The notes: generated by a model not told the origin, from the letters alone. Shown: positions 1,264-42,394, numbered from the stretch's first letter. The stretch is 64,000 bases of DNA from an uncultured Gammaproteobacteria bacterium (GCA_964552565.1 CAZKGL010000001.1:307061-371060); one strand, 5' to 3'. Numbers and translations: made by a program.

Positions 1264-1282
1264 TGTGGGAGGAGCGCTTGTC

Positions 1283-3802
1283 ATGACGGCATACGCGAAG
1301 ACGTCCGGTCTCAACACCGCGTCCGACCTTTCGTTTGCCCCGTACCTCGTCGTTGCGGCGATCCTCGCGGCCATCGTCGCGGTTGCGTTTTTCGTGGCGC
1401 GGTCGATGCTGCGCAAGAAATCGCGCCAGCGGGGCGGGGCGTACACGAACGTCACGCTCATGGTGACGATCCCCAAGTTCCGCAGCGAGGAAGAGGCGAA
1501 GGGCAACGACACCCAGCAGACCGTCAAGGAGTCGATTGCGATCGCCGAAACGTTCTTTTCCGCGGTCGGCGGCTTGAAGCCGGAGCACGGGTTGAAGGCG
1601 TGGCTGTACGGCCGCCCGGATTCCCTTGCGCTCGAGATCGTCGCGCACGCAAAGCTGGTGACGTTCTTCGTGACGGTGCCGCGGTATCTGCAGGAGTTCA
1701 TCGAACAGCAGCTCCATGCACAGTACAGCGACGCGCACATCGAGCCGGTCGAGGACTACAACCTGTTTGCGCCGACGGGCACGGTGCTCGGCGGCTATTT
1801 GACGTTAAAGCGCCAAAGCGTCTTCCCGCTCAAGACGTACAAGGAGCTCGATTCGGACCCCATGAACGCGCTCACGAACGCGTTGTCGAAGGTGCAGGAG
1901 GGCGACGGCGTTGCGGTGCAGTACATCGTGCGGCCAGCGCACCACGGCTGGCGCGAGCTTGGCGCGAAGATCGTGCGCAACATGAACAACGGCATGACGC
2001 TCGAGGAAGCGACGAAGGGCAAGTCGATGGCGAGCTGGTTTGCGACGAAGGAAGACGTCGAAAAGAAAAAAGAGGAGAAGCGCGAGCGCAAACTCTCCCA
2101 AGCTGAGCAGAAGATGGTCGAGGGGATCGGCAACAAGATCAGCAAGGCCGGCATGGAGGTCAATGTGCGCGTCGTGTCGTCCGCGCAATCGGCGGACACC
2201 GCGCTTGCGAACCTGAACAACGTGCTCCAGGCGTTCAGCCAGTACAACATTTACGAATACGGCAATTCGTTCAGCAAGGTCATCCCGCCGGGGAAGGGCA
2301 AGCTTATCGACGCGTTCATTTTCCGCACGTTCGAGGAGCGCCAGCGCGTCATCCTGAACACGGAAGAGATGGCGTCGCTCTGGCACCTGCCGCTCCCGTC
2401 GACCGATACCCCGAACATCCGCTGGATGCTTGCGCGCGTCGCGCCGGCGCCGACGAACACCCCGACCGAGGGCCTCTTGCTCGGGTTCAATACGTTCCGC
2501 GGCGTGAAGAAGGACGTCTACCTCAAGGATGCCGACCGCCGACGCCACCTGTACATCATCGGTAAAACGGGCGCCGGTAAGTCGGAGTTCATCAAGAACC
2601 AGGCGATCCAGGATATCCGGAACGGCAAGGGCGTCGCGGTCATCGACCCGCACGGCGACCTGGCGGACGGGCTGCTTGAACTCATCCCGAAGCATCGTTA
2701 CGACGACGTCATCTACTTCAATCCGTCCGACATGGAGCGCCCGATGGGTCTCAACATGCTCGAGGCGCCCAACGAGCAGATGCGCGACTTCGCCGTGCAG
2801 GAGATGATCAGCATCTTCTACATGCTGTTCCCGCCGGAGATGATCGGTCCCATGTTCGAGCACAACATGCGCAACTACATGCTGACGCTCATGGCCGACG
2901 TCGAGCATCCGGGCACCATCGTCGAGATCCCGCGCATGATTGCGGACGAGAAGTTCCAGCAGCAGTGGGTCGCGAAGGTCAAGGACCCGGTGGTGCGCAG
3001 CTTCTGGGAGGACGAGATGGCGAAGACGAGCGACTACCACAAGAGCGAGATGATGGGCTACCTCGTCAGCAAGGTCGGCCGTTTCGTCGAGAACGAGATG
3101 ATGCGCAATATCATCGGCCAGTCGAAGAGCGCGTTCAACTTCCGCGAGATCATGGACGAGGGCAAGATCCTCCTCGTTAACCTGTCGAAGGGCAAGACCG
3201 GCGAGGTGAACGGGAACCTCCTCGGCCTCATCCTTGTCGCGAAGCTCCAGATGGCGGCGTTCACCCGCGCGGACATCCCGGAGCCGGAGCGCAAGGATTT
3301 CTACCTGTACATCGACGAGTTCCAGAACTTCGTCACGCCGTCGATCGCCACGATCCTTTCCGAGGCGCGTAAGTACCGCCTGAACCTCGTGATGGCGCAC
3401 CAGTACATGGGGCAGCTTGTGAAGGACGGGAGGAGCGAGATCCGCGACGCTGTGCTTGGCAACGTCGGCAGCATGTTCGTGTCACGCATCGGTCCTGAAG
3501 ACACGGAGGTGCTTGCGAAGATCTACGAACCGACCTTCTCGCCGTACGACCTCATGAACAATGAGGCATACAGCTGGAATGCGAAGATCATCATCGACAA
3601 CTCGCAGGAGAAGCCGTTTACGCTCAAGGCGTATCCCCCGGAGAAGGGAAAGCCGAAGGTGGGCGAGGCCCTGAAGGAGATCTCGCGCCTCCTGTACGGA
3701 CGCGACAAGGGCATCGTGGAGCGCGAAATTACGATCCGCGCCGGGCTCGGCATGAAGCCGCCCGTAAAGCCCGTCGCCCCTGTTTCACCTCCAAGCCTCT
3801 AG
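1283..3802 (+). CDS. TraD/VirD4/TrwB-family type IV secretion coupling-protein-like ATPase with an N-terminal TM helix. Alternative start at 1265.
   Basis: Walker A IIGKTGAGKSEF followed by VIDPHGD (TrwB/T4SS-DNA-transfer signature). Walker B/TraG-D_C-like YLYIDEFQNF...VMAHQYMGQL. GGGAGGAG lies 8 nt upstream of ATG 1283. Confidence 0.6.
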   Translation: MTAYAKTSGLNTASDLSFAPYLVVAAILAAIVAVAFFVARSMLRKKSRQRGGAYTNVTLMVTIPKFRSEEEAKGNDTQQTVKESIAIAETFFSAVGGLKPEHGLKAWLYGRPDSLALEIVAHAKLVTFFVTVPRYLQEFIEQQLHAQYSDAHIEPVEDYNLFAPTGTVLGGYLTLKRQSVFPLKTYKELDSDPMNALTNALSKVQEGDGVAVQYIVRPAHHGWRELGAKIVRNMNNGMTLEEATKGKSMASWFATKEDVEKKKEEKRERKLSQAEQKMVEGIGNKISKAGMEVNVRVVSSAQSADTALANLNNVLQAFSQYNIYEYGNSFSKVIPPGKGKLIDAFIFRTFEERQRVILNTEEMASLWHLPLPSTDTPNIRWMLARVAPAPTNTPTEGLLLGFNTFRGVKKDVYLKDADRRRHLYIIGKTGAGKSEFIKNQAIQDIRNGKGVAVIDPHGDLADGLLELIPKHRYDDVIYFNPSDMERPMGLNMLEAPNEQMRDFAVQEMISIFYMLFPPEMIGPMFEHNMRNYMLTLMADVEHPGTIVEIPRMIADEKFQQQWVAKVKDPVVRSFWEDEMAKTSDYHKSEMMGYLVSKVGRFVENEMMRNIIGQSKSAFNFREIMDEGKILLVNLSKGKTGEVNGNLLGLILVAKLQMAAFTRADIPEPERKDFYLYIDEFQNFVTPSIATILSEARKYRLNLVMAHQYMGQLVKDGRSEIRDAVLGNVGSMFVSRIGPEDTEVLAKIYEPTFSPYDLMNNEAYSWNAKIIIDNSQEKPFTLKAYPPEKGKPKVGEALKEISRLLYGRDKGIVEREITIRAGLGMKPPVKPVAPVSPPSL

Positions 3803-8560: not shown

Positions 8561-9928
8561 ATGCGCCTCACGTTTTTTGGCGCGACCGAGTCCGTGACCG
8601 GGTCGTGTTTTCTTGTGGAGACGAACGGTAGCACGCTGCTCGTCGATTGCGGCGCGGTGCAGGGCGAGCGCATGTGCAGCAAGACCAACCTTGAGGATTT
8701 TCCGTTCGACCCGAAAGCGATCGACGCCGTGCTTGTGACGCACGCGCACTTCGACCATACCGGCCGTTTGCCGAAACTCGTGCGGGACGGGTTCGCGGGC
8801 CCGATTTTTTCGACTGCACCGACGAAGAGCATTTCGGAGATCGTGCTCGAGGACTCGCTCACCGTCATGCGGGAGAACGCAGAGAAGTGCGGCGACGGCG
8901 TGCCGTACGAAGAAGAGGATATCGTTGCGGCGCTCGGCCGCATGAAGGGGATCGGCTACCACACCGAATTCGAGCCGGCGCGGCACGTACGCGCCATGTT
9001 CCACGATGCCGGGCACATCTTGGGTTCGTCGTTTGTTTCGCTGGACATCCCGGGCGAGGACATGGCGTCAGGCAATGAGGCGCGCATCGTGTTCAGCGGC
9101 GATATCGGCAACGACAACGTCCCGATCCTTCCCGATACTGATGCGATCGAGCATGCGGACATCGTGGTGTGTGAGTCGACGTATGGCGCGAAAGACCACG
9201 ACCCGGTCGAGACACGCGGCAAGGACCTCGCGGCGTTCGTGCAGGAGGTCATCGGTCGGGGCGGGACGCTGCTCATCCCGGCGTTTTCCGTCGAACGCAC
9301 GCAGGAGCTGCTGTACGAACTCGACTTGCTCCTCGAAGCGCGCGTCATCCCCGAGGTTCCTATTTACCTCGACAGCCCGCTCGCCATTAAGGCGACCGAG
9401 CTCTACCGCCACTACAAGGCGTATTTGCGTTTTGACCATCCGGCAAGCAAGGACGGGGACTTTTTCTCGTTCCGCAACCTGCGCGAGACGCTGACGGTGC
9501 AGGAATCGACGCTCATCGACACCGACCGTCGCCCGAAGATCGTCATCGCAGGCAACGGCATGATGACCGGCGGGCGCATTCTGCGTCATTTGCAACAGCA
9601 CCTCGGCGACCCGAAGTCGGGCGTGCTCATCATCGGGTTCCAAGGCGCATACACGCTCGGCCGGAAGATCCAGGACGGCGCGAAGACGGTGATGATTGAA
9701 AAGAGAAAAGTCGAGGTCGCCGCGACGGTGAAGTCCATCGAAGCGTTTTCGGCGCACGGCGACCGCGCCAAGCTCGCGCGCTGGCTGCATCCGGAGTCCG
9801 GCGGCGTCCCAAGGGTCTTCCTGACGCATGGTGAGCAGGAAACGAAGGAGCAGTTTGCGCAGTACTTGCACGCCCACGGCATCCCCGACGTCACTATTCC
9901 GCGCATCACGCAGACGTTCGAGTTTTGA
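8561..9928 (+). CDS. MBL-fold beta-CASP ribonuclease (RNase J / CPSF-like)
   Basis: HAHFDHTG metal-binding motif, DAGHILGS, beta-CASP region, and the C-terminal HGEQE... motif. Confidence 0.75.
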   Translation: MRLTFFGATESVTGSCFLVETNGSTLLVDCGAVQGERMCSKTNLEDFPFDPKAIDAVLVTHAHFDHTGRLPKLVRDGFAGPIFSTAPTKSISEIVLEDSLTVMRENAEKCGDGVPYEEEDIVAALGRMKGIGYHTEFEPARHVRAMFHDAGHILGSSFVSLDIPGEDMASGNEARIVFSGDIGNDNVPILPDTDAIEHADIVVCESTYGAKDHDPVETRGKDLAAFVQEVIGRGGTLLIPAFSVERTQELLYELDLLLEARVIPEVPIYLDSPLAIKATELYRHYKAYLRFDHPASKDGDFFSFRNLRETLTVQESTLIDTDRRPKIVIAGNGMMTGGRILRHLQQHLGDPKSGVLIIGFQGAYTLGRKIQDGAKTVMIEKRKVEVAATVKSIEAFSAHGDRAKLARWLHPESGGVPRVFLTHGEQETKEQFAQYLHAHGIPDVTIPRITQTFEF

Positions 9929-20758: not shown

Positions 20759-21426
20759 GGGTGTTGTGGCGCATGGCAAAATGGTTGCTCGTGCTTGCGG
20801 TCGGCCTCACGATCGCGGTCTTTGTTTGTGCGCAGGCTGCGGTCGCGGAGATGGAGGCGAAGATCGTCACTGTCGCCGACCTTGCGCCGGCGCCGGCGGT
20901 CATCGTCCCCGGCGCGAGCGTGCTCAGGAACGGCCAGCCGTCCGACGTCCTCGCCGACCGGTTGCTGACCGCGATCGACATCTACGAGGCGGGGAAGGCG
21001 GAGAAGATCTTGGTGTCCGGCGACCATGGCGATGAGGAATATGACGAGGTGAACGTCATGCGGACGTACCTCCTCGACAAGGGCATCCCGGAGGAGGACA
21101 TTTTTCTCGACCACGCCGGGTTCGACACCTATGACACCATGTACCGCGCCCACCACCTTTTTGGGCTGACGGAGGCGGTCGTCGCCAGCCAGACGTTCCA
21201 CTTGCCCCGGGCGATCTATATCGGGGAGTCGCTTGGGATGGCGGTGCAGGGTGTGGCGTCGGAACGGCAGCCGTACGTCAAAGACGCGGAGTTTGCCTTC
21301 CGCGAGCGGTTCGCGGTCGTCAAAGCCTATGTGGATGTCATGCTGGGCTCGAATCCCGCGTATCTTGGCGAAAAAATCGATATTTCGGGCGATGGCCGCG
21401 TGACGTGGGACCAGGGGCTGGAATGA
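20755..21426 (+). CDS. DUF218-domain protein (YdcF/SanA/ElyC family)
   Basis: N-terminal TM plus a YdcF-like core. The start ATG overlaps the murJ stop as ATGA. Confidence 0.55.
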   Translation: MRVLWRMAKWLLVLAVGLTIAVFVCAQAAVAEMEAKIVTVADLAPAPAVIVPGASVLRNGQPSDVLADRLLTAIDIYEAGKAEKILVSGDHGDEEYDEVNVMRTYLLDKGIPEEDIFLDHAGFDTYDTMYRAHHLFGLTEAVVASQTFHLPRAIYIGESLGMAVQGVASERQPYVKDAEFAFRERFAVVKAYVDVMLGSNPAYLGEKIDISGDGRVTWDQGLE

Positions 21427-21435
21427 TGAGGGCGG

Positions 21436-21464
21436 TTGACAAACCTCGACCGCTCGTGTAGTAT
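21436..21464 (+). promoter_or_regulatory. Near-consensus sigma70 promoter TTGACA-N17-TAGTAT
   Basis: Hexamers read directly; the predicted TSS is ~17 nt upstream of the 21488 ORF. Confidence 0.5.
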
Positions 21465-21487
21465 TTTCGCTTGTCTTAGCGAAGAGC

Positions 21488-21757
21488 TTGGACTTGATGG
21501 AGGGGACTTTTCCAAAGGGGGCAGATTTGGAAAAGATGGAGCGTGAGGAGATGTACTTCGTGACGTTTCGCGTGTCGTCCGACCGCCATGGGGAGATGTC
21601 GGTCACGATCCCGTGGGCCGACCGGTTCGGCAGCCATGCGCGGTTCTCGCACCCGATCCCTCGGGATGCGGTCATCGCGCCGGCGCCAGCCCAGCCGGTC
21701 CCGGATCAGATCAAGGTGCGCATCGGCGCCCTTGTGTTCGTCCGTCGCGCGGCCTGA
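21488..21757 (+). CDS. Hypothetical small protein
   Basis: ORF immediately downstream of the strong promoter; no family recognised. Confidence 0.3.
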   Translation: MDLMEGTFPKGADLEKMEREEMYFVTFRVSSDRHGEMSVTIPWADRFGSHARFSHPIPRDAVIAPAPAQPVPDQIKVRIGALVFVRRAA

Positions 21758-21850
21758 CCGCTGCGCCGTAGGCTCCCTCGCCTCGTCGAGGGCTCCTACC
21801 ACCCGTCTTCATCATCCCAGGATGGTGGCGAGCGGTGGAGGGAGAAACAG

Positions 21851-22753
21851 ATGGACTTTCACTTCGCCGTCCTCATGCAGCGGCTCGAGGCCGTGCAGCG
21901 GGACATGCCCGTGGTCATGGCCGCGGTGCGCAACGAGACGATCCGCGTCGCGTCCGACCCCATGCTCGCGTGGTACGGGGAGAAGATGGTGTACACGGGG
22001 TTCCTCATCATGGGCCTGTGCCTCGTCTTCAGCGAGGCGATCGCCGAAGCGGTGCACCCGCGGCCCCCGCCGCGGCCCCGGCCTCGCACCAGCCTCATCT
22101 CGCTCGTCCCGCCTCCTCCGCCCAGCGGCGGGGACGGCGAGGACGCGCCGCGCGAGGAGGAGCCCGACCCGTCGGTCCGCAACACGCTGCCGGGCGACCG
22201 GCCGCTGCCCGCGCGCCTCGGCCTCGCGTCCGCATCGGCGGATCTCGGCTCGCCGCCGGACCCCCCGTCCGTGCCGCGCTCCGTGCGTCGCATGATGGGG
22301 CTCGACGACATCCTCGGCGCGCCGCGCGAGGACGACCCGTTCGCCGCCATGCGCGGCCCCGGGTACCAGTCCGCGTTCGACCCGCCGTCTCCGGTCCTCG
22401 TGTCGGAGAACGCGGAGGACGTGCCGACGCCGTCCCAGCTGCCGCGCGCCACCTCGCCGACTGCTGAGCACGAGGAAGACCTCATGGGCGGCCACGGCGG
22501 AGGGGCGGACGACCAGGAGTCGACCGAGGACCTCGGCGCGGACGACCAGGGCTCCGGAGACGGCAACGAGGACGCGCCGGCCGAGGAGCCGGGGCTGGTG
22601 CCGCCCACCGCGGGCGAGTTCCTGGCCCTCTCGGGCTTCGGGAAGGTCGAGGACGATTTCTTCAACAGCGAGGTCGGCACCGTCGGGCCCGTGGACCCGT
22701 CCCGGCAGCCGGGACGCATGCCGCGCCCCTCGACCGAAGAGGAAGAGTCCTAG
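21851..22753 (+). CDS. Hypothetical protein with one TM, then a long Pro-rich/acidic disordered region
   Basis: GGAGGGAG lies 7 nt upstream of the ATG. The hydrophobic segment is YTGFLIMGLCLVF. Confidence 0.4.
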   Translation: MDFHFAVLMQRLEAVQRDMPVVMAAVRNETIRVASDPMLAWYGEKMVYTGFLIMGLCLVFSEAIAEAVHPRPPPRPRPRTSLISLVPPPPPSGGDGEDAPREEEPDPSVRNTLPGDRPLPARLGLASASADLGSPPDPPSVPRSVRRMMGLDDILGAPREDDPFAAMRGPGYQSAFDPPSPVLVSENAEDVPTPSQLPRATSPTAEHEEDLMGGHGGGADDQESTEDLGADDQGSGDGNEDAPAEEPGLVPPTAGEFLALSGFGKVEDDFFNSEVGTVGPVDPSRQPGRMPRPSTEEEES

Positions 22754-22771
22754 CGTCAACAAGGAGGAACG

Positions 22772-22812
22772 GACGGTGTCCAGATCGTGGGCACCGTCTT
22801 CCTATTTCTGGG
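22772..22812 (+). terminator. Hairpin GACGGTG...CACCGTC followed by a T-rich tract
   Basis: Read directly after the stop at 22753. Confidence 0.5.
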
Positions 22813-22935
22813 GATGCGCGCTTGTAAGCGAGCTTTACTTTTGCGAGAATTCGGTGTAGATTATTGCGTCGTTTTCCTTCTGGGCCGTCGATACGAGCCG
22901 TACCGGTTCGCGCCGATCCCTGGAGGGAAGGCAAC

Positions 22936-23187
22936 ATGCATATCGTTCGTGGCATCGGGGCGTTCATCGTCGTCATCGGGTCGTTCTTCGCAGGGGCGTT
23001 CATCGTGTGGCAGGAGTCCGCGCCGACGATCGCCGCCTACCAAGCGCACAGCGCGTCGACGGAGCGCATCGCCCGGGAGTGCATCGAGAACAGTGAGAGG
23101 CTCGGCGGCCTCGCGGACGAGGCGTCGCAGCTGGCGGCCGATTCGCTCGCGCGCTACATCGCCTGCCAGGAGGAGCAGGGCAACTAG
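22936..23187 (+). CDS. Array gene 1: small membrane protein (83 aa) with 1 TM and a helical tail
   Basis: GGAGGG lies 8 nt upstream of the ATG. Translation begins MHIVRGIGAFIVVIGSFFAGAFIVW. Confidence 0.55.
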   Translation: MHIVRGIGAFIVVIGSFFAGAFIVWQESAPTIAAYQAHSASTERIARECIENSERLGGLADEASQLAADSLARYIACQEEQGN

Positions 23188-23274
23188 GCGACGACAACGT
23201 CGCGCGTCCGGATACTCGGCACGAGGTTCTCCTCGCGCCGATCTCCGGCCGAATGGATCGACCGAGGAGGCACA

Positions 23275-23604
23275 ATGTTCGAGCTCGTGGTCTTTTATAT
23301 CGTGTACATGGTTTTCTTGTCCGCCGCCCTTGGTTTGGGCTCGGTGGTGGGGGCGCGAGTGCCGCGCACGCGCCGTCGACCGGTGGCGATTGGAGCCATC
23401 TTCGGCTTCGTGTTCTTCTTCCTGTCTACGATTGTCGTAGCGCTGATGGGGATGCACAACGCCATGAGCATCATCGTGGCGTGTGCCGTGGTGCACAATT
23501 TTTCTGGGGGACTCCTCATTCGGTTCGTGCTGCAGATCATCAGTGAGCGTCACCGCTCGGCCGACGCCATTCGCCGCCTCTACCCTGACGACCACGTGCA
23601 GTGA
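23275..23604 (+). CDS. Array gene 2: small polytopic membrane protein (109 aa)
   Basis: Leader ...CCGGCCGAATGGATCGACCGAGGAGGcacaATG; about 3 TM helices. Confidence 0.55.
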   Translation: MFELVVFYIVYMVFLSAALGLGSVVGARVPRTRRRPVAIGAIFGFVFFFLSTIVVALMGMHNAMSIIVACAVVHNFSGGLLIRFVLQIISERHRSADAIRRLYPDDHVQ

Positions 23605-23867
23605 TGACGAGCATCGCCGCGTTCGTGTTCATGTCTTCGCTGCCGACTGCAGCGTACGTCGTCGCCGCGCTGTTCCTCGGGAGCGGCGCACTGCACTGGC
23701 GCAGTGCGTATCCGGCTGTAGGCCCGATTGTGGGCTGTGCGTGTGGGCATATCGTCGGAGCGCTGTTGGGCGAGATGATCGTGCAGGATCAGCTGATGTG
23801 GCCCGCCGCAATCGTGGTCCTGGCCGTCTACGTCGTCATGCACTTCGTGATCGCGTATTGCAGGTAG
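23604..23867 (+). CDS. Array gene 3: small membrane protein (87 aa)
   Basis: ATG overlaps the upstream stop (TGATG). About 3 TM helices. Confidence 0.45.
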   Translation: MTSIAAFVFMSSLPTAAYVVAALFLGSGALHWRSAYPAVGPIVGCACGHIVGALLGEMIVQDQLMWPAAIVVLAVYVVMHFVIAYCR

Positions 23868-23972
23868 GTGGCCCCGTCGCTCGCGAGCGACGGGGCGGGC
23901 CGGACGTCGAGATGAGGAAACGCCTCGTCTCGATCACCGGCCGAATCAACCAATCGGCCCCGGAGGTTGCCA

Positions 23973-24167
23973 GTGGTCCGTACCGTGTTGCGTATCTTCG
24001 TTCTCGGCATCATCATCGGGATCGTTGCGTCACTCGTCGGGGAGGGGTTGTTCGGCCACGACAGTCCCGTGCGGGCGCGGATGATGACCGCGGGCGCCGC
24101 GGTTCTGCTCATGCTCGGGCTTCCGGACCTTTGGGACATGTGGAAGGCGAAGAAGCGGGAGGGGTGA
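23973..24167 (+). CDS. Array gene 4: small membrane protein (~64 aa). GTG start proposed; an alternative TTG start lies at 23967.
   Basis: GGAGG sits 6 nt upstream of the GTG; 2 TM helices. Confidence 0.4.
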   Translation: MVRTVLRIFVLGIIIGIVASLVGEGLFGHDSPVRARMMTAGAAVLLMLGLPDLWDMWKAKKREG

Positions 24168-24323
24168 GCATCTGTCCGGCGTTTGCTCGCTCGTGTCGCG
24201 CGACGATTCCTCGAAGTCGTCGCGCCGCCGTCAATGTTCGAGTGTTCAAAAATGGCCGATCGTCATTTTTTGAACACATGGTCATCGACGGCCGAATGGA
24301 TCGACCGAGGAGGTACCTGTCCC

Positions 24324-24551
24324 ATGTTCCGCGCCATGCTCGCCCGCGTCCGTACGATGGATGCTGACGAGATCATCCTCTACTTCTGGTCGCCAACGGC
24401 CCTGCTGCTCATCATCCCGGGGATCTTCATCCGGGAAGTGGCTGCCCAGCAGGCGTTCGGCAAGCTGATGTTCGGGTGGCTGGTGTTCACTCCGCTCCTG
24501 TACCTCATCGTCTGCCTGGTTCGACGCGGGCCCGTGAAGACCGCCTCGTGA
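24324..24551 (+). CDS. Array gene 5: small membrane protein (75 aa)
   Basis: Same GGCCGAATGGATCGACCGAGGAGG leader module as gene 2; 2 TM helices. Confidence 0.5.
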   Translation: MFRAMLARVRTMDADEIILYFWSPTALLLIIPGIFIREVAAQQAFGKLMFGWLVFTPLLYLIVCLVRRGPVKTAS

Positions 24552-24726
24552 CGCCGACGGACGACGAGCTGGACCTGTTCCCTGAACTTCGTGACGACCG
24601 CTAGCCAGTCGTCCTGCCGGATCCTCGGCATCACCGGTTCGCGGTGGTGCCAAGTCCCGGCCGAAGGTGTGCGGCGCGGGAATGTCCCCGCGCGGCATGC
24701 GTGACCACCGGCCAACGGAGGACGTC

Positions 24727-25014
24727 ATGATCGTCATGATGTTCGTAGCAATCCTCAGCGCACCGGTGCACGCCGCCGATGCGTTCGCGTCATGGCCGCC
24801 GCCTGAGCCGCCGCAGCAGGAGGACGAGTGTGCGGGCGAGCTCGCCGAGGCGAACGCCCGCATTGTCGAGCTCGAGGAGGCGCTCATCGACGCGGAATGC
24901 GACACGGTGCGTGACCGCTGGGTTTCCCGTGTGGAAGATATTGTCACTGGGCTCGTCGTGGCGGGCGTCCTTGGCGCGCTGGTCTGGCTCAAGCCGGACC
25001 ACACGGGTCGCTGA
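24727..25014 (+). CDS. Array gene 6: small secreted or bitopic protein (95 aa) with a signal peptide, coiled coil and C-terminal TM
   Basis: Leader ...CCACCGGCCAACGGAGGacgtcATG. Signal peptide MIVMMFVAILSAPVHAADA. Confidence 0.5.
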   Translation: MIVMMFVAILSAPVHAADAFASWPPPEPPQQEDECAGELAEANARIVELEEALIDAECDTVRDRWVSRVEDIVTGLVVAGVLGALVWLKPDHTGR

Positions 25015-25019
25015 TCGAG

Positions 25020-25280
25020 ATGCGCGCACTTCGGACGCTGCTCCTCGCGGTCGCCGTGGCGCCGATCGTCGGCGTGTGGGCGTTCCCGCTGGGCGGGTTG
25101 CTCGCGGTCGCCATCTACGCGGTTCTCCTTGGCATCGGCCGCGCGGAGGACGCGGCGTGGTGCCTGCTCGGCTTCCCGTGCGCCGGGCTTGCGCTCGTCG
25201 GCCTGTCGCGCTCCCACGAGGAGCGGTGGCTTGCCGCCATTCCCATGCCGTCGCCCGACGATACGCCGTTCGCGGCGTGA
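25020..25280 (+). CDS. Array gene 7: small membrane protein (86 aa)
   Basis: Starts 5 nt after the gene 6 stop; ~3 TM helices; no own SD. Confidence 0.4.
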   Translation: MRALRTLLLAVAVAPIVGVWAFPLGGLLAVAIYAVLLGIGRAEDAAWCLLGFPCAGLALVGLSRSHEERWLAAIPMPSPDDTPFAA

Positions 25281-25398
25281 TGTCGGACAGCCGGACGTCG
25301 AGATGAGGGAACGCCCTTGTCTCGATCACCGGCCGAAGGTGTGCGGCGCGGGAATGTCCCCGCGCGGCATGCGTGACCACCGGCCAACGGAGGCCACC

Positions 25399-25728
25399 AT
25401 GGGCATCGTCATCGTCACTCTTTCCGTTTCCGCTGCGTGGATCATCGGGCTGGCGGCGCTCCTCGGACTCATGGATCCATGGCCCCTCTTCTCCCGGAAC
25501 ATCCGAGAGTGGATGCTGGCCGCGGCTCCGGTCCCGCCCGTCCGCCCGATGTCGCCGATCGTGTCGCCTGCGCTCCTCATGATGTCCGGCATTGTGCTCA
25601 TCGCCGCATCGCTGCCCCTCGTCACTATGGAGTGGGGATGCCTTTCGAGGATCATCCTCATCATCATCGGAGGGGCGTTCGTCGCCACCGCGCTCACGCG
25701 GATCCACCGGTACTTCACGGTGGGCTAG
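25399..25728 (+). CDS. Array gene 8: small polytopic membrane protein (109 aa)
   Basis: Same CCGGCCGAAGGTGTGCGGCGCGGGAATGTCCCCGCGCGGCATGCGTGACCACCGGCCAACGGAGG leader as gene 6. Confidence 0.5.
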   Translation: MGIVIVTLSVSAAWIIGLAALLGLMDPWPLFSRNIREWMLAAAPVPPVRPMSPIVSPALLMMSGIVLIAASLPLVTMEWGCLSRIILIIIGGAFVATALTRIHRYFTVG

Positions 25729-25828
25729 CGGGAACGCCGTCCGGATACTCGGCACGAGGTTCTCCTCGCGCCGATCTCCGGCCGAACTGTTCGGTCCCGT
25801 TCCGTCCAACCCTGTCCCCGGAGGTTCC

Positions 25829-26248
25829 GTGGAGCACGTGCACTTCGCGATCGCCGCCATCGTGCCGCCGACACGCCACTCGCTCGGCGCGTTGGTCGTC
25901 ATGTGCGCCGTCGCGGCCGCCATCATCTTCATCCTGGCGAAGCCGGAGTTCGCGCGGCGCATCGCGCGGCGCATGCTCCGCGTGGGAATCGCGCTTGCCA
26001 TCATGACGCTGCTCATCATCGGCGGGTACGCGCTGCGCGTCGGCCTGTCGGGTGTCGGCCTGCCCGAGTCGCTGTCGAACATCATCGGCTTCACGGTGAC
26101 GTGGGGCGGGATGTACCTGGTCATCATCGACTGGATGCGCCGGCAGCGCGCGTTCCTCGCATCGCAACAGCAGGCTGCGCGCGACGCAGGCGTCCGCGCG
26201 CTCCGCCCTGGCCGCTTCCCGCACCCCGAGCCACCGGAGGACCCATGA
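25829..26248 (+). CDS. Array gene 9: membrane protein (~139 aa), GTG start
   Basis: CCCCGGAGGttccGTG; 3-4 TM helices. Confidence 0.45.
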   Translation: MEHVHFAIAAIVPPTRHSLGALVVMCAVAAAIIFILAKPEFARRIARRMLRVGIALAIMTLLIIGGYALRVGLSGVGLPESLSNIIGFTVTWGGMYLVIIDWMRRQRAFLASQQQAARDAGVRALRPGRFPHPEPPEDP

Positions 26249-26526
26249 ACCAGGTCGTGTCGCTCTTTGTCCGACTCTCGTACCACCCGGCCGCGCCGTA
26301 CCTCACGATGCTCATCGTCGGAGAGGCGGCTGTCGGACTCATCTCCTGGGGCGGCGGACTCACGCACGTCCCCTGGTGGCATGCGGCGCTCGGCGTCGGC
26401 GTCACCATGCTGGTGCTGACGGCCGCTCTCCGCGCCGACGAGCGGACGCTGGCGAAGTACTACGGGCACATGCTCGTCGCCTTCGCCGCCGTCGTGCTCC
26501 TCGTCGGCTGGATGGTGACGCCGTGA
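26245..26526 (+). CDS. Array gene 10: small membrane protein (93 aa)
   Basis: GGAGGacccATG overlaps the upstream stop (ATGA); 3 TM helices. Confidence 0.5.
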   Translation: MNQVVSLFVRLSYHPAAPYLTMLIVGEAAVGLISWGGGLTHVPWWHAALGVGVTMLVLTAALRADERTLAKYYGHMLVAFAAVVLLVGWMVTP

Positions 26527-26684
26527 CGCTCACGGCCGCCTCCGTCGCTGCGTGCGCCGTCGACCTCGTCCTCGCGCTCGCCGTCCTCGTCGCCATGATC
26601 CGATGGTGGCCGGAGACGCGGCGCGAGCGCCTCAATCGCCGCATGGGAGGACCGGACCTCCGTGAACGCCCCCGCTCGTGCTGA
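26523..26684 (+). CDS. Array gene 11: very small TM protein (~53 aa), GTG start overlapping the upstream stop (GTGA)
   Basis: One TM plus a basic tail. Weakly supported; the terminator follows. Confidence 0.25.
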   Translation: MTLTAASVAACAVDLVLALAVLVAMIRWWPETRRERLNRRMGGPDLRERPRSC

Positions 26685-26708
26685 GCCGGGGCGTTCTTCC
26701 TTTTATTG
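26664..26708 (+). terminator. Rho-independent terminator closing the small-gene array
   Basis: GAACGCCCCCG...CGGGGCGTTC hairpin followed by TTCCTTTTATT. Confidence 0.55.
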
Positions 26709-26745
26709 CAAACGATGGGCGTTTTCGTTACACTCATCCCATTCT

Positions 26746-28527
26746 ATGATTACCGGCAACGAACTTCGCAAGAAGTACATCGATTTTTTCAAAACGAAAG
26801 GCCACGCCGAGATCGCGTCCGCATCCGTCGTCCCCGAAAACGACCCGACGGTGCTCTTCACGACCGCCGGCATGCACCCGCTCGTCCCGTACCTTTTGGG
26901 CGAGCCGCATCCGTCCGGCAAGCGCCTTGTCGACTACCAGCGCTGCATCCGCACCGGCGACATCGACGACGTGGGCGACAACACGCACCTCACATTCTTC
27001 ACGATGCTCGGCAACTGGAGCCTCGGCGATTACTTCAAGAGGGAGTCGATTGCATGGAGCTTCGAGTTTTTGACGTCGCCGGAGTGGCTCGGCATTCCAT
27101 TGTCGCATCTGTCGTTCACGGTGTTCGAGGGCGACGAGAACGCGCCGTTCGACGATGAGGCGTACGGCCATTGGACGCAGCTCGGCGTCGCGCCGGAGCG
27201 CATTGCGAAGCTCGGCAAGGAGGACAACTGGTGGGGTCCGGCGGGCAAGACCGGTCCGTGCGGTCCGGACACGGAGATTTTTTATTGGACGGGGGAGGGC
27301 GAGGCGCCGGCCGTGTACGACCCGAAGGACAAGCGCTGGATGGAGATCTGGAACAACGTCTTCATGCAGTTCAACAAGCAGGAGGACGGCACGCTTGCGC
27401 CGCTTGCCGCGGGGAGCGTCGACACGGGCATGGGGCTCGAGCGCACCATCGTCGCCCTGCAGAAGAAGGCGAACGTGTACGAGACCGAATTGTTCACCGG
27501 CATCCTCGGCGCCATCGAGCGGCTGTCGGGCAAGGCATACGCGTCCGACGCCGACGTCACGAAGTCGATGCGCATCATCGCCGACCACCTCCGTGCCGCG
27601 TCCGTCATGGTGATGGATGGCGTCGCGCCGTCGAACAAAGACCAGGGGTACATTCTCCGCCGCCTTGTGCGCCGCGCCATCCGGCACGGGCGCAAGCTTG
27701 GCGTCGAGAGCGGCGCGCTGATCCCGGCGGTCGTCGGCGAAATCGCCGCGTCGCTTGGCGAGGCATATCCAAAACTCGTCGAAACGCAATCGGACATCGT
27801 CGCGGCCATCGATGCCGAGGCGAAGAAGTTTGAGAAGACGATCGCGCAGGGCTTGAAGGAGTTCCAGAAGATTTGGGAAAAGAAGCAAGCGATTTCCGGT
27901 GAAGACGCATTCAATCTGTACCAGTCGTACGGCTTCCCGCTCGAGGTGACGCAGGAGCTGGCGGCAGAGCAGGGGCAGCAGGTTGATCGTGACGTCTTTG
28001 CGTCGGAATTCAAGAAGCACCAGGACCTCTCGCGCGCGGGCGCGGAGCAGAAGTTCGCCGGAGGCCTCGCGGACCATTCCGCCGAGACGACGCGGCTCCA
28101 CACCGCGACGCACCTCGTGCACCAGGCGCTGCGCGATGTGCTCGGCCCGCACGTGGCGCAGAAGGGGAGTAACATCACTGCCGAGCGCATGCGCTTTGAC
28201 TTTTCGCATCCCGAAAAGATGACGCCGGAGCAGATCGCCGAGGTCGAACGCATCGTCAACGAACAGATCAAAAAAGACATGCCGGTGCACTTCGAGCTCC
28301 TCACGGTCGAGGAGGCGAAGGCGCGCGGCGCGATTGGCCTCTTCGAGGACAAGTACGCGGCCATCGGCGGCAAGATCAAGGTCTACTTCATGGGCGACTA
28401 CTCGAAGGAGATCTGCGGCGGCCCGCACGTCGAGCACACGGGTGAACTCGGCGGCTTCAAAATCGTAAAGGAAGAGGCCGTGTCGGCGGGTGTCCGACGT
28501 ATCAAAGCCGTTCTTGGTTCAACATAG
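26746..28527 (+). CDS. alaS: Alanyl-tRNA synthetase, short form (593 aa) without the C-terminal C-Ala domain
   Basis: N-terminus ELRKKYIDFFKTKGHAEIASASVVPENDPTVLFTTAGM. Editing-domain motifs HTATHLVHQAL and CGGPHVEH are present; the protein ends shortly after. Confidence 0.85.
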   Translation: MITGNELRKKYIDFFKTKGHAEIASASVVPENDPTVLFTTAGMHPLVPYLLGEPHPSGKRLVDYQRCIRTGDIDDVGDNTHLTFFTMLGNWSLGDYFKRESIAWSFEFLTSPEWLGIPLSHLSFTVFEGDENAPFDDEAYGHWTQLGVAPERIAKLGKEDNWWGPAGKTGPCGPDTEIFYWTGEGEAPAVYDPKDKRWMEIWNNVFMQFNKQEDGTLAPLAAGSVDTGMGLERTIVALQKKANVYETELFTGILGAIERLSGKAYASDADVTKSMRIIADHLRAASVMVMDGVAPSNKDQGYILRRLVRRAIRHGRKLGVESGALIPAVVGEIAASLGEAYPKLVETQSDIVAAIDAEAKKFEKTIAQGLKEFQKIWEKKQAISGEDAFNLYQSYGFPLEVTQELAAEQGQQVDRDVFASEFKKHQDLSRAGAEQKFAGGLADHSAETTRLHTATHLVHQALRDVLGPHVAQKGSNITAERMRFDFSHPEKMTPEQIAEVERIVNEQIKKDMPVHFELLTVEEAKARGAIGLFEDKYAAIGGKIKVYFMGDYSKEICGGPHVEHTGELGGFKIVKEEAVSAGVRRIKAVLGST

Positions 28528-31038: not shown

Positions 31039-31662
31039 ATGGGTAAGACTCTCAACAAACTTGGGAAGATGAGCCGCCGCGAGGGCGTGCCGCTTTCGAC
31101 GAGCGCGAGTATCATCAAGGTGATGCAGCGACGCCCGTATGCGCCGGGTGCACACGGCAAGAAGAACGCAGGCCGCCCGCCGCGCCTGTCCGTCTTCGGC
31201 CAGCAGCTGCGCGAAAAGCAGAAGGCGAAGCGCCTCTACGGCATCATGGAACAGCAGTTCCGCAACTACTTCACCAAGGCCTCGCGCCTGGAGGGCAACA
31301 CGGGTGAACACCTGAGCCGCCTCCTCGAGCTGCGCCTCGACAACGTCGTGTTCCGCCTCGGATTCGCGAAGACCCGCCCGCAGGCCCGCCAGATGGTCAG
31401 CCATGGCATGTTCCTCGTGAACGGCGAGAAGGTGAACATCCCGTCGTATCAGGTGCGCATCGGCGATATCGTCGAGCTGCGCCCGAACAAGAAGGACAAG
31501 AAGGTGTTTGGCGACTTGGAAGACCGCTTGAAGACCGTCACGGTCCCGGGCTGGCTCCACATGGAGGCTGCGAAGGGCAAAGTGGTCAGCGTTCCTGCAG
31601 GCGAGGACCTTAAGGAAGCGTTCGATCCTAAACTCATCGTCGAGTTCTACTCGATGCGATAA
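31039..31662 (+). CDS. rpsD: 30S ribosomal protein S4
   Basis: LREKQKAKRLYGIMEQQFRNYF...RLDNVVFRLGFA. Confidence 0.9.
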   Translation: MGKTLNKLGKMSRREGVPLSTSASIIKVMQRRPYAPGAHGKKNAGRPPRLSVFGQQLREKQKAKRLYGIMEQQFRNYFTKASRLEGNTGEHLSRLLELRLDNVVFRLGFAKTRPQARQMVSHGMFLVNGEKVNIPSYQVRIGDIVELRPNKKDKKVFGDLEDRLKTVTVPGWLHMEAAKGKVVSVPAGEDLKEAFDPKLIVEFYSMR

Positions 31663-34317: not shown

Positions 34318-35538
34318 ATGAAAAAGCACATCTGGCTGTGGACGTCGTATGATCTGGCGAATTCACTGGCGTCCGTGACGGTGGCGTTTTACTTCAGCCT
34401 TTGGCTCGTCAAAGAACGCGGCGCGTCCGACCTTTGGGTCAGCCTTCCCATGGCGATCGCGACGTTCATCCTTCTCATCACATTGCCGTACTTCGGCAAA
34501 CTGTCCGACCAGATGGGGAAGCGCAAGCCATTCCTTGCGGTCACGACGACCGTCGCCGCAGCGGCACTCATGGCGCTCGGATGGTACGCCTCTGGCGTCG
34601 ATGTGCTCACGAACGGGTCGCTTGCCGTCATCGTCATCCTTTTCTCTGTCTACCAGTATTGCTTCCAGGCGGCACTTGCATTTTACATGGCGTATCTGGC
34701 CGACCTCGCCGTTGCGAAGTCGAAAGAAGCAGTCGCTGGTCTTGGCGTCGCTGCGGGCCAGATGGGGAATATCATCGGACTTATTGTCGCATTGCCCTTG
34801 GCCGAACAGTCCGGCCGTCCGATGGCACTCCTGCTCGGTGGTGCGATGTTTCTCGTCGTGGCGCTCCCGATGCTCATCTGGTTGCCGGAAGCCAAACGCA
34901 CGAGCGGACAGGCGGTCATGGCATCGCCAAAGGAGATGCTGCGCTCACTGAAGGATATCCGCGCCGTCCCAGGTTTGCTCCGTTACCTCCTGGTCTTCTA
35001 CCTTTTCGCGGATGCGCTGTTGACGCTGAACGCCTTCGTATCCCTTTACCTTGAAGAAGTTGGAGGAATGACCGACAAGACAAAGACGCTGGTGATGGTC
35101 ATTGGGCTGTTGCTTGCAGTGTTAAGCGGTACGGTCGCCGACCGTTTGATGCGTGCAATCGGAAGCCTCAAACGTGCCATGTCCGTCCTCATCCTCACGT
35201 GGGTCGTATTCATCATCGCGCTTGCGCTTGTGACGTCCCCAGTCGCGTTCGGCATCGTGGCATCCCTGAACGGCTTCGCATTCGGTGCGCTCTTCGCGCT
35301 TTCCCGCGCCTACTACTCCGACCTTGCGCCGCGCCACCGGCAGGGTGAATTCTTTGGCTATTACGTCCTCTTCGAGCGTTTCGCATCCATGATCGGCCCG
35401 CTCTTGTGGAGCCTTGTCGCACTGCTCTTTATTGATCTCGGCGCCGACCGGTACCGGTTTTCCGTCGCCTCGCTCGCCATCCTCGTTGCGCTGAGTTACG
35501 TCCTCCTCCGGAAGGTTCCTGAGCCAAAGCGCTTGTAA
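34318..35538 (+). CDS. MFS-type transporter
   Basis: About 12 predicted TM segments with an MFS-like motif region (LPYFGKLSDQMGKRKP). Confidence 0.65.
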   Translation: MKKHIWLWTSYDLANSLASVTVAFYFSLWLVKERGASDLWVSLPMAIATFILLITLPYFGKLSDQMGKRKPFLAVTTTVAAAALMALGWYASGVDVLTNGSLAVIVILFSVYQYCFQAALAFYMAYLADLAVAKSKEAVAGLGVAAGQMGNIIGLIVALPLAEQSGRPMALLLGGAMFLVVALPMLIWLPEAKRTSGQAVMASPKEMLRSLKDIRAVPGLLRYLLVFYLFADALLTLNAFVSLYLEEVGGMTDKTKTLVMVIGLLLAVLSGTVADRLMRAIGSLKRAMSVLILTWVVFIIALALVTSPVAFGIVASLNGFAFGALFALSRAYYSDLAPRHRQGEFFGYYVLFERFASMIGPLLWSLVALLFIDLGADRYRFSVASLAILVALSYVLLRKVPEPKRL

Positions 35539-40753: not shown

Positions 40754-40801
40754 ATTCATACGTTGTTCAAAAACTGACGATCGGCAGTATTTTGCACAGA
40801 T

Positions 40802-42394
40802 ATGTTCGCAAAACAGTTTCTCGGAAAAACCGCTGCGGTCACGTTTCCCGCGCTCGCCGCGGTCCATCTGGTCGCGATTCCGCTCCAGCACAACGACCTT
40901 CCGAGCGCCGTCGCGCTCGCGCTCGTCGGCGTGGCCGCGTGCGCCCTCACCGCACGGTCCCTCGTGTGGGGCCTTGTCCTTGCGTTCGCCGAAATCATAG
41001 CCGGCGGCCACGGCCACCTGCTCGCCGCGGACATCGCCGGGTTCCCGCTGTCGCTGCGCATGGCCGTGTTCGCCGGTGTCATGCTGGGCTACGTCTGGCA
41101 CGTCGCGCGCCGCCGCGTCCGGCCGACCTTCCTCGTCTTCCGCGACACGCCGTTCTTGCTCCTTGCCATCGCGGTCGCCATCGGGACCGTACACGGGATG
41201 CTCGCGAACGACCCGCTCCATGCGTTCGACGACATGAACGGTTACTTCACGCTCGCGTACCTCCTGCCGCTCGCGTCGGTGGCGTGGGACAACACGACGC
41301 GCCGCGCGCTGCTCCAAGGGATGTTCGCGTCGGTCATGTGGGTTGCGCTCTCGACGCTTGCCATCGTGTTCCTTTTCACGCACCTGCCGGGCTGGATGCT
41401 GCATGATGTCTACGCGTTCGTGCGGGATGCGCGCATCGCCGAGGTGACGCTCCTCACCGGTCCGGATTGGTTTGTCGGCAACCTCCTGCCCGACGCGAGT
41501 CCGTGGTATTTCCGCGTGTTCGAGCCCGCGCATTTCTTCGTCCTCGTGCTCGGCCTCATCTTGGTGGCGGCGCGGTTCCTCTTGTGGAAAGGGGAGCGGA
41601 TGCCCCACATGGCGCGCGTGGCGTTCACGCTTTGTGTTGCCGCGTTCATCGCCAGCCTCTCGCGGAGTTTCCTTATCGGCGCGGCCGCCGGGCTCTGCGC
41701 GACCGCGGTGTTCGTCGGGGTCGACGCGCCGCGCGCCATCGGCAGGCACCTGCTCCGCAGCCTCCCGCTCCTGTTCTTGGTATTCCTCGGCGCCGGCGTG
41801 TTCTGGGCCACGGTCGTTTTCCCGTTCCCAAGCCACCCGAACCTGCAGGACGCGGCGTTTTACCGTGAGACGGAAAGCGACGACCGGGACCTTGCGGTCT
41901 CCAGCCGGTGGAACCTCTTGTACCCGATGTTTACGGCGATCATGGAGCACCCCGTAGTCGGGGCCGGCTTCGGCAAAGAGGTCACGTTCATCTCTGACGA
42001 CCCGCGGGTCCGCGACATCAACCCGAGCGGGGAGTGGACCACGTATCGGTTCGAGTGGGGCTACCAGGATATCTGGCTCAAGATGGGGCTCCTCGGCCTG
42101 GTCGCGTTCGTGTGGTACCTCGTCGTGTTGTCACGCGCGTTTTACTTCAGTTACCTTCGCCACGGGCACCGCTGGCTGGTGACCGGGCTCTACGCCGGCG
42201 TCATCGCGCTCTTCGCCACGCACGTGTTCTCGCCGTACCTCAACCATCCCATCGGCCTCGGCTTCATGCTGTTCGTGCTGCCGTTCTTCGATTGGCAGGG
42301 CGTCGTCGCGTCGTTTGCGAAAGAGGACGAGGCCCGCGCGAAAGAATCGGTCGTGAAGGTACCGACGCCGGTCGTGACGATGCGCGGCGAGTGA
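40802..42394 (+). CDS. O-antigen ligase / Wzy_C-domain polytopic membrane protein
   Basis: About 12 TM helices and a periplasmic loop with the FSRSFLIGAAAG region typical of the family. Confidence 0.5.
   Translation: MFAKQFLGKTAAVTFPALAAVHLVAIPLQHNDLPSAVALALVGVAACALTARSLVWGLVLAFAEIIAGGHGHLLAADIAGFPLSLRMAVFAGVMLGYVWHVARRRVRPTFLVFRDTPFLLLAIAVAIGTVHGMLANDPLHAFDDMNGYFTLAYLLPLASVAWDNTTRRALLQGMFASVMWVALSTLAIVFLFTHLPGWMLHDVYAFVRDARIAEVTLLTGPDWFVGNLLPDASPWYFRVFEPAHFFVLVLGLILVAARFLLWKGERMPHMARVAFTLCVAAFIASLSRSFLIGAAAGLCATAVFVGVDAPRAIGRHLLRSLPLLFLVFLGAGVFWATVVFPFPSHPNLQDAAFYRETESDDRDLAVSSRWNLLYPMFTAIMEHPVVGAGFGKEVTFISDDPRVRDINPSGEWTTYRFEWGYQDIWLKMGLLGLVAFVWYLVVLSRAFYFSYLRHGHRWLVTGLYAGVIALFATHVFSPYLNHPIGLGFMLFVLPFFDWQGVVASFAKEDEARAKESVVKVPTPVVTMRGE

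Follow-up and report, generated by a model that had tools for sequence, protein, structure and literature searches.

Operons are known to be shaped by protective hairpins between cistrons and by RNA cleavage beside 5' hairpins (Dar and Sorek, 2018, PMC5927463). In Escherichia coli, the intercistronic hairpins of the repetitive extragenic palindromic (REP) and bacterial interspersed mosaic element (BIME) type, as in malE-malF, and that of papBA are GC-rich imperfect stem-loops which are located in operon spacers after stop codons and are free of T-tracts (PMC5927463). REPs are imperfect stem-loops of 35-40 nt with a conserved tetranucleotide at the foot; E. coli possesses hundreds of dispersed copies, frequently paired in inverted orientation, and a link exists to REP-associated tyrosine transposases (RAYT) (PMC3479197). 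In this work we describe a family of repeated hairpin leaders in the spacers of a single operon of eleven small same-strand genes (g1-g11, 22936-26684, + strand). The operon is situated on a stretch of DNA of 64,000 nucleotides, hereafter called the window, which is deposited under an uncultured Gammaproteobacteria bacterium (GCA_964552565.1, CAZKGL010000001.1:307061-371060). The leaders represent a real, locally repeated and structured family without described relatives and a new form of intercistronic palindromic element; most likely they are RNA control elements and not a gene-shuffling system. Judged by analogy, protective or processing hairpins inside operons appear to be their closest counterparts (PMC5927463).

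With the E. coli hairpins the array shares the GC-rich imperfect stem-loops in operon spacers behind stop codons and the missing T-tracts, and with REP/BIME sequences also the repetition, the conserved motif flanking the foot and the possibility of several elements per operon. Unlike REPs, the array copies are restricted to one operon, point in one direction and are each fused to a repeated 5' untranslated region (5'UTR) module bearing a Shine-Dalgarno (SD) sequence. Mycobacterial interspersed repetitive units (MIRUs), which Supply et al. reportedly described in 1997, are said to be repeats of 40-100 bp in the intercistronic operon spacers of a GC-rich genome, to be scattered over about 40 loci, where they often vary in tandem copy number, and to carry small coupling open reading frames (ORFs). 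Like MIRUs, the array modules follow the direction of transcription and span the interval from a stop codon to the start signals of the next gene, whereas they form no tandem array, are not dispersed in the window and are dominated by a hairpin. The RNase III processing hairpins between the cistrons of phage T7, an observation reportedly going back to Dunn and Studier in 1983, are said to consist of two stems of about 10 bp, and their cleavage to leave a 3' stabilising stem. Both are families of similar irregular hairpins with an internal loop in what is, for the array presumably, a long polycistronic RNA. In contrast to T7, the lower stem in the array measures just 4-5 bp and the context is non-phage.

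The window (63% GC) is nearly identical to contig JACOUU010000014.1 of assembly GCA_016177675.1, which is annotated as Candidatus Uhrbacteria (Patescibacteria), and is also matched by Logan contigs of run SRR12113420. All six long spacers of the array follow one plan: an imperfect hairpin of 41-44 nt with the foot CCGGA...CCGG is followed by the tail CCGAA, a variable 5'UTR and a perfect GGAGG. An initial annotation of the sequence had described these leaders as modular and repeated, which holds far beyond chance, with module borders shifted by 1-5 nt. Hairpin A (GTCCGGATAC...CCGGCCGAA; foot CCGGA/TCCGG, 11-bp upper stem with an A.C mismatch, tail CCGAA) stands at 23206-23253 and 25739-25786 on the + strand, and the 100% identity of the two copies extends to 49 nt (23205-23253 = 25738-25786); it had rightly been recognized as an imperfect palindrome, its second copy having been placed 5 nt away. 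Hairpin B (23899-23945, +; foot CCGG/CCGG, 11-bp upper stem with one U.G pair, tail CCGAA) and its counterpart B' (25290-25337, +) had been regarded as copies of one module. A hairpin is indeed formed at both sites, but the copy is not exact, with 2 substitutions and 1 indel and an identity of 94% over 48 nt between 23901-23945 and 25292-25337. Module F (TGGATCGACCGAGGAGG) precedes g2 (23254-23270, +; SD end 4 nt before the ATG) and g5 (24297-24313, +; SD 10 nt before the ATG), and becomes an exact repeat of 25 nt once CGGCCGAA is included. The 56-nt module E, 100% identical in both copies, precedes g6 (24666-24721, +) and g8 (25338-25393, +), contains a hairpin and forms an exact repeat of 65 nt together with CCGGCCGAA; both modules had been assigned to these gene pairs already. 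The 65 nt are the longest exact direct repeat in 22700-26800, compared with a mean of 12.5 and a maximum of 16 in 200 first-order Markov surrogates.

The motif CGGCCGAA occurs once per spacer and in uniform orientation in all 6 spacers of at least 87 nt, and GGCCGAA is 18-fold enriched in the array. The longer CCGGCCGAA is found in five copies in the array, accompanied by one ACGGCCGAA at 24288-24296; elsewhere in the window two copies exist, both on the minus strand and without an adjoining hairpin. The repeats are confined to the operon, and the search for further copies proposed at the outset yielded none in the remaining 60 kb of the window. Repeat edges are abrupt, since no similarity is found past the modules in alignments extended by 120 nt each way. 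Upstream modules end right after CCGAA, and downstream modules start at C(C)GGCCGAA and end at GGAGG; identity of the former ends, and identity of the latter starts, inside CGGCCGAA, which is therefore the sole sequence common to all junctions. One and the same hairpin is followed by different downstream modules in different spacers, as had been noticed initially, and every such change of partner maps within CGGCCGAA, so that a DNA exchange at or near this motif must have occurred. The mosaic requires that this exchange between spacers was recent. Units with the same 5' module (F: g2-g3 and g5; E: g6-g7 and g8) comprise unrelated genes and different 3' hairpins.

These junctions invite comparison with integrons. 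Similar to attC sites and clusters of attC sites lacking integrases (CALIN), the array presents imperfect palindromes with conserved ends and variable, covarying centres, which separate same-direction, mostly ORFan and promoterless genes behind what appears to be a single promoter, and exchange takes place at a short core (here 8-9 nt) at the 3' end of the hairpin. The array, moreover, lies within a lineage-specific insertion of 5.3 kb between conserved genes. It could accordingly be imagined as a cassette array, in which units of 5'UTR, one to three ORFs and hairpin are inserted, excised or reshuffled by site-specific recombination within CGGCCGAA, and the initial annotation had proposed such a cassette-shuffling system. 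This proposal was not supported, and we consider it decidedly improbable. One crossover point cannot yield a 5' module shared by unrelated ORFs with different hairpins, and GGAGG forms a second abrupt edge of the downstream modules; the pattern needs more than one crossover site. The integron core sites RYYYAAC/GTTRRRY are absent from the palindrome ends, which read G(Y)CCGGA and NCCGGCCGAA (top strand) or TTCGGCCGG...TCCGGRC (bottom strand), without any AAC/GTT pair. Neither IntI nor another phage-type integrase (Phage_integrase), recombinase or transposase was seen in the 64 kb, as judged from gene calls over about 14.3-56 kb and 10 further large ORFs from the window ends. Exact E and F modules are missing from viral contigs, and in phage and plasmid collections blastn with the array found no match. 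The structural variants that shuffling might produce were likewise not encountered: window, NCBI assembly and Logan contigs, all of them assemblies from one population and site, are identical across the array. There is a slighter chance still that hairpin and CGGCCGAA are single-strand recombination sites of an undescribed cassette platform of Patescibacteria, with its enzyme encoded elsewhere in the 0.84-Mb genome. Such a platform would capture or assemble ORFan genes for small membrane proteins behind one promoter, adding a stock 5'UTR with SD and a 3' hairpin, and would work like an integron without the sequence signatures of IntI and attC.

The origin of the repeats from tandem duplication can be judged from the genes themselves. 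Simple duplication of a gene together with its leader, which the initial annotation had kept as an alternative, is ruled out by the non-homologous flanking genes. In a weaker form, the leaders would be remnants of tandem duplications of one ancestral gene-plus-leader whose coding parts have diverged beyond recognition; all genes do encode small hydrophobic proteins, and g6 and g8 share ATCGTCAT just past the ATG. However, pairwise comparison of the g1-g11 proteins revealed no similarity (best E-value about 0.08 in a 12-sequence database), identical spacers of 49-65 nt beside unalignable coding DNA are the reverse of the expected divergence, and the module combinations are mosaic instead of unit-wise. 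This explanation is largely refuted and, among all those discussed here, the one to which we attach the smallest probability.

The five hairpins with foot and tail (A twice, B, B' and C) all fit the pattern CCGGA-N2-4-TCG-N16-28-CRA-NNN-CCGGCCGAA, for which shuffled sequences lead one to expect no match. Hairpin C (24612-24665, +) has the foot and tail of A and B and a 12-bp upper stem of different sequence. Common to the hairpins are a CCGG/CCGG foot, an internal loop of 3-4 nt by 3 nt, an upper stem of 11-12 bp, a loop of 4-5 nt and the CCGAA tail. When types A, B/B' and C are compared, two-sided compensatory changes are found at five of the 12 upper-stem positions (4, 5, 8, 10 and 11), none of the changes is disruptive, and the remaining ones are G.U pairs or repair a mismatch. 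The differences between B and B' also preserve pairing, with one G-C pair changed to G.U and one G-C pair added. Two-sided changes that stay paired indicate that intra-strand pairing, beyond the sequence, is conserved. A covariance model built from A alone recovered B (26 bits), B' (16 bits) and C (15.3 bits) in the 64 kb; one extra match at 31453-31490 (17.9 bits), inside rpsD, was judged to be due to chance. Folding of the leaders, a check which had been suggested beforehand, was strong in all cases (z = -3 to -5.9 for five of the six). What is special about the hairpins is their repetition together with the conserved foot and tail, rather than their stability.

Beyond the hairpins, each leader contains a segment complementary to the junction. 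In the unique leader x before g4 (TCAACCAATCGGCCCCGGAGGTTGCCA; 23946-23972, +; GGAGG 6 nt before the GTG) this is UCGGCC, complementary to GGCCGA, in module F it is UCGACCG, in module E a second CGGCC, and in the unique leader y before g9 (25787-25828, +; GGAGG 4 nt before the GTG) it is GUUCGG. For leader y, CCGAAC-UG-UUCGG is predicted to fold the tail into a small hairpin. Module E consists of the hairpin GUGUGC.GCGCGGG/CCCGCGC.GCAUGC followed by CCACCG-GCCAA-CGGAGG, in which the anti-SD-like CCACCG is predicted to pair with the SD. The 5' leader of g1 (22871-22935, +; minimum free energy -36.8, z -3.6) carries a degenerate A-like hairpin with a weak score of 11.7 bits, TCGCGCCGATCCCTGG standing in place of TCGCGCCGATCTCCGG in A; its outer stem is predicted to pair UUUUCCUUCUGGG with the SD CCCUGGAGGGAAGG and thus to mask it. 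An A-like hairpin which sequesters the SD in a 5'UTR downstream of a promoter would place this hairpin type in a leader. Comparison with Rfam 15, including riboswitches, ROSE and fourU thermometers and leaders, gave no hit at the gathering threshold (best E-values 2-6, from unrelated miRNA and snoRNA models) and nothing relevant at permissive thresholds.

Repeated regulatory RNA leaders, the second possibility in the initial annotation, fit the observations better than cassettes: the elements are aligned with transcription, occupy every long spacer of one apparent promoter-to-terminator unit and end at an SD that is perfect and rare in this genome. Just before the array a hairpin with T-run at 22771-22799 (+) forms the terminator of the preceding gene g0, and is followed by an AT-rich, promoter-like region at 22820-22865 (+; TTTACT-N17-TAGATT or TTGTAA-N17-GAGAAT), which was not called in a consensus scan and which we take as the likely array promoter. 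The array ends in a terminator-like hairpin GAACGCCCC...GGGGCGTTC followed by TTCCTTTTATTG (26664-26706, +), detected by the scan at 26653-26698 with -27.8 kcal/mol and seven T in the tail; alaS follows with its own promoter (TTGCAA-N17-TACACT) and an apparently leaderless ATG at 26746. The outer terminators have 4-7 T in the tail, whereas the internal hairpin tails (CCGAA...) contain 1-3 T per 10 nt, and a GC-rich hairpin with a T/U tract, as in intrinsic terminators, was not found inside the array. No -10-like TANNNT is located near any internal start, no sigma-70-like promoter was seen inside the operon, and between the outer terminators no AT-rich promoter-like box was detected past 22820-22865, except in palindrome D. 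Bracketing terminators, one promoter-like stretch and T-less internal hairpins point to a single transcript, and g1-g11 are probably co-transcribed.

Palindrome D belongs to the spacer between g4 and g5, where a first hairpin with a perfect stem of 10-11 bp (about 24198-24226, +) is followed by the long, imperfect, AT-cored D (24227-24292, +), ending in the ACGGCCGAA mentioned above. Its 33-nt arms are 76% complementary, and the core 24242-24279 has one bulge. A GC-rich palindrome directly behind the g3 stop (23871-23896, +) is perfect and not followed by a T-run. Of the three extra hairpins that had initially been called perfect, two deserve the term and D does not. A further small hairpin at 23188-23203 lies ahead of the first copy of A. 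Such hairpins, 3-20 nt past stop codons and sometimes two in tandem, could be taken as unconventional (I-shaped) terminators of separate transcription units, whose promoters would be hidden unrecognised in the downstream modules, and 21 of 22 nt in D indeed agree with the promoter region of a Wzy-like gene. The recognisable terminators here have T-runs, however, the promoters are AT-rich TTGnnn/TAnnnT boxes near the ATG of which the spacers contain none, D excepted, and a conserved CCGAA tail and foot are not features of terminators. Separate units therefore have, in our estimation, about the same low likelihood as a cassette array. Promoters of extracytoplasmic function (ECF) or sigma-54 type, for which the modules were inspected by eye, did not fit.

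Translation starts in the array are also out of the ordinary. A perfect GGAGG stands 4-10 nt before the start codons of g0, g1, g2, g4, g5, g6, g8, g9 and g10 (-9.5 to -13 kcal/mol), compared with three of 39 other genes, whose mean duplex energy with the anti-SD is -3.5 kcal/mol; most conserved genes have no SD. The perfect GGAGG is almost confined to genes for small hypothetical proteins, namely g0-g10 and, elsewhere, hyp68, hyp90 and hyp209. Twelve other genes, mostly apparently the first of their unit, are preceded by a TANNNT box ending 6-12 nt before the ATG (with extended TG in seven), which suggests that their mRNAs are leaderless; examples are alaS (26700-26748) and the gene starts in loci L083 and L218. 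For internal ribosomal-protein genes, the start codon lies a few nucleotides from the stop ahead of it. Outside the array the genome thus looks leaderless or driven by reinitiation and nearly SD-free, and against this background the SD-bearing leaders of the array stand out. As the repeated downstream modules end exactly at the SD, they look like portable ribosome-entry leaders. SD accessibility was considered as a distinguishing trait and discarded, the array leaders being inseparable from other genes by partition function. For g6 and g8 the public gene calls begin at ATG codons in module E (24682 and 25354), and the predicted proteins share the N-terminus MSPRGMRDHRPTE. Since the ATG farther downstream has a perfect GGAGG 5 nt ahead of it, the shorter proteins are more likely to be genuine.

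From these observations we derive a model of intercistronic structured RNA leaders that are homogenised by local copying between paralogous spacers, a reading to which we give somewhat less than an even chance. The unit of consideration would be the six intercistronic spacers and the 5'UTR of one operon of about 3.9 kb with eleven lineage-specific genes for small membrane proteins, transcribed as one RNA. Behind the upstream stop codon, the first part of each leader would form a hairpin of 41-44 nt with a foot of 4-5 bp, an asymmetric internal loop, a variable upper stem and a single-stranded CCGAA; the second part would be a short 5'UTR whose 3' portion pairs back to the GGCCGA junction or to the SD and which ends in GGAGG. 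The hairpins would mark the cistron boundaries, protecting the upstream cistron as 3' barriers against exonucleases and persisting as structured ends once the unpaired tail is cleaved. As 5' stem-loops, they may in addition shield the downstream cistron from a 5'-3' enzyme of the RNase J type. An RNase J-like beta-CASP enzyme is encoded at 8561-9928, and a 5' stem-loop before each cistron would plausibly protect it from this enzyme. The second part with its SD would provide every internal cistron with its own, partly masked ribosome entry site, which would matter because the genome otherwise appears to start translation on leaderless mRNAs or by reinitiation. The module mosaic would be due to recent, local and non-reciprocal copying between paralogous spacers, by gene conversion or by template switching at stalled hairpins, with the exchanges resolved in the motifs common to all spacers, i.e., the hairpin foot, CGGCCGAA and GGAGG. 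A role of the elements in RNA agrees with their uniform orientation, the presence of one element per long spacer, the restriction to one operon and the fusion to SD modules.

Several points weigh against this model. It relies on sequence and predicted folds from one population; homologous arrays in which conservation could be tested were not found, as g0, g2 and g9 matched only themselves and relatives have no array. Perfect identity over 49-65 nt points to very recent events at the DNA level, and a shared motif of 5-9 nt is short for conversion of the RecA type. Strong hairpins are common in a window with 63% GC, where 183 clusters reach -22 kcal/mol or less. The SDs of the array have probabilities of being unpaired of 0.006-0.6 in partition-function calculations, overlapping with those of other genes, so that the predicted SD pairing appears unremarkable for GC-rich RNA. 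Finally, hairpin A folds better as antisense (-30.7 vs -25.5) and C is neutral, a mixed strand signal which leaves room for a role in single-stranded DNA. On the other side, the G.U pairs of B, B' and the hairpin in module E belong to the sense strand, and four of the six whole leaders fold better as sense RNA; taken together, the strand test based on these predicted folds weakly favours sense RNA.

The better pairing of A on the bottom strand also suits selfish palindromic DNA similar to REPs or miniature inverted-repeat transposable elements (MITEs). Hairpin and pentanucleotide would then be the single-stranded DNA substrate of an HUH/Y1-type enzyme encoded elsewhere, and copies would have colonised the operon spacers. 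Viewed on the bottom strand, 5'-TTCGG precedes the imperfect hairpin, as GTAG does in REPs. The architecture does resemble REPs (PMC3479197), the array hairpins being stem-loops of 41-44 nt with mismatches or bulges, an internal loop and a conserved foot which the CCGAA (TTCGG) flank abuts, and identical copies with abrupt edges would be expected as well. REP-like dispersal, however, is missing: the five foot-and-tail hairpins and the variant D, i.e., all six copies, lie within 2.6 kb of one operon and none in the other 60 kb, despite the many intergenic regions there. All copies have the same orientation, for which the chance is about 1/32, inverted pairs as in BIMEs or REPINs do not occur, the flanks of the A, B, E and F copies show no duplicated target site, and no Y1 or RAYT gene was found in the gene calls and large ORFs of the window. 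Such an origin does not account for the downstream modules E and F, which are repeated just as much and extend to the SD. We regard such selfish DNA as unlikely, if less so than cassettes or separate transcription units. A CRISPR is not present either, the three or four hairpin sequences being spaced by 250-860 nt of coding DNA with high GC content at third codon positions (GC3).

In the window a gap of 5.3 kb separates the DUF218 gene from alaS; it contains an 89-aa ORF, g0 (300 aa) and g1-g11, all on the + strand. For comparison, AlaRS-anchored loci were taken from 80 genomes. The relatives obtained are Uhrbacteria and other Patescibacteria, the nearest with an AlaRS identity of 72-83% and about 50% GC; in these genomes murJ, the DUF218 gene and alaS are spaced 84-960 bp apart, with 0-2 small genes between them. 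Neither CGGCCGAA hairpins nor comparable repeats were found at the DUF218/alaS site of the nearest relatives. The entire block 21427-26745 is lineage-specific, and the up to two small membrane genes of relatives at this site are unrelated. Searches with g0, g2 and g9 in collections of 5.8e9 and 1.84e9 proteins (g2 in that of 5.8e9) returned only self matches. A lineage-specific block and three tested genes without homologue in billions of proteins mark the site as a hotspot for the gain or birth of genes for small membrane proteins. Patescibacteria have small, repeat-poor genomes with many lineage-specific small membrane proteins whose origin and expression are obscure. Here an ORFan island lies in a conserved neighbourhood, and the leaders of all its internal genes are assembled from stock parts that were clearly copied recently. 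If the RNA reading is true, boundary hairpin and strong SD would form compact, natural and portable expression modules letting new cistrons work in an operon, which bears on how new genes gain expression; if the DNA reading is true, a new cassette or REP-like system would exist in the Candidate Phyla Radiation. With evidence from one population, the practical impact is modest at present.

Each of g0 and g1-g11 has a coding GC pattern (GC3 0.78-0.94), and all except g10 contain at least one hydrophobic segment by a hydropathy threshold. The array proteins matched no family in Pfam, where only sub-threshold transmembrane (TM) noise was obtained, and a search with the in-frame translation of leader B'+E for other genes annotated through module E found nothing. 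All genes lie on the + strand. The first, g1 (22936-23187), encodes an ORFan-type small protein of 83 aa with one TM segment (GC3 0.92), and g2 (23275-23604) a protein of 109 aa with three; g3 (23601-23867, 88 aa) overlaps g2 by ATGA. For g4 (23973-24167, 64 aa) the start codon is GTG, and the NCBI call begins at 23985. They are followed by g5 (24324-24551, 75 aa, two TM segments), g6 (24727-25014, 95 aa), g7 (25020-25280, 86 aa) and g8 (25399-25728, 109 aa, about four TM segments). The overlapping genes g9-g10-g11 fill 25829-26684, with g9 (139 aa, GTG start) being the first, g10 (93 aa) at 26245-26526 and g11 (53 aa) at 26523-26684.

An artefact of assembly was rejected as the source of the repeats, since independent Logan contigs show 100% identity and their breaks at the repeats are those expected of a k=31 graph. 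Two segments of the window, 21303-21447 (145 bp) and 35119-35181 (63 bp), are missing from JACOUU010000014.1; Logan contig L217 supports the window for the former, and no Logan contig covers the latter. The DUF218 gene ends within the 145-bp segment, and a good sigma-70-like promoter (21436-21464) lies partly in it. Two further breaks, at 23390, inside g2, and at 26702, just past the array terminator, are the ends of Logan contigs L215 and L082 and fall in sequence that is not repeated in the window; their cause could be poor read coverage, or variants within the population where the array ends. Scanning with the hairpin pattern gave nine single matches in viral contigs, which were weaker (-8 to -20 vs about -26 kcal/mol) and of which several resembled coding sequence. 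In metagenome contigs at least 120 single matches were obtained, on high-GC contigs and with a mean fold of -14 kcal/mol, and the two best low-GC matches among those listed lay within a 23S rRNA helix; the pattern was discarded as too unspecific. Avoidance of CGGCCG due to restriction-modification was dismissed in view of 91 sites in the window.

An 845-aa protein with ATPase domains of type IV secretion coupling proteins (TrwB/TraG/VirD4-like) is encoded at 1265-3802, about 20 kb upstream of the array. Within the array, 53 nt past the g5 stop look coding in another frame (24476-24604), and a 42-aa ORF ends 8-12 nt before hairpin C. The gene g5 may contain a frameshift or overlap with a second small ORF, either of which would account for the unusually long gap of 60 nt between stop and hairpin. 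The counterpart of the core of D (24255-24276) is located on the minus strand at 40764-40785, just upstream of a Wzy_C-family gene starting at 40802. The motif common to both, TTCAAAAA..GACGATCGGC, may be a shared promoter or operator and possibly serves as an internal or antisense promoter in the array.

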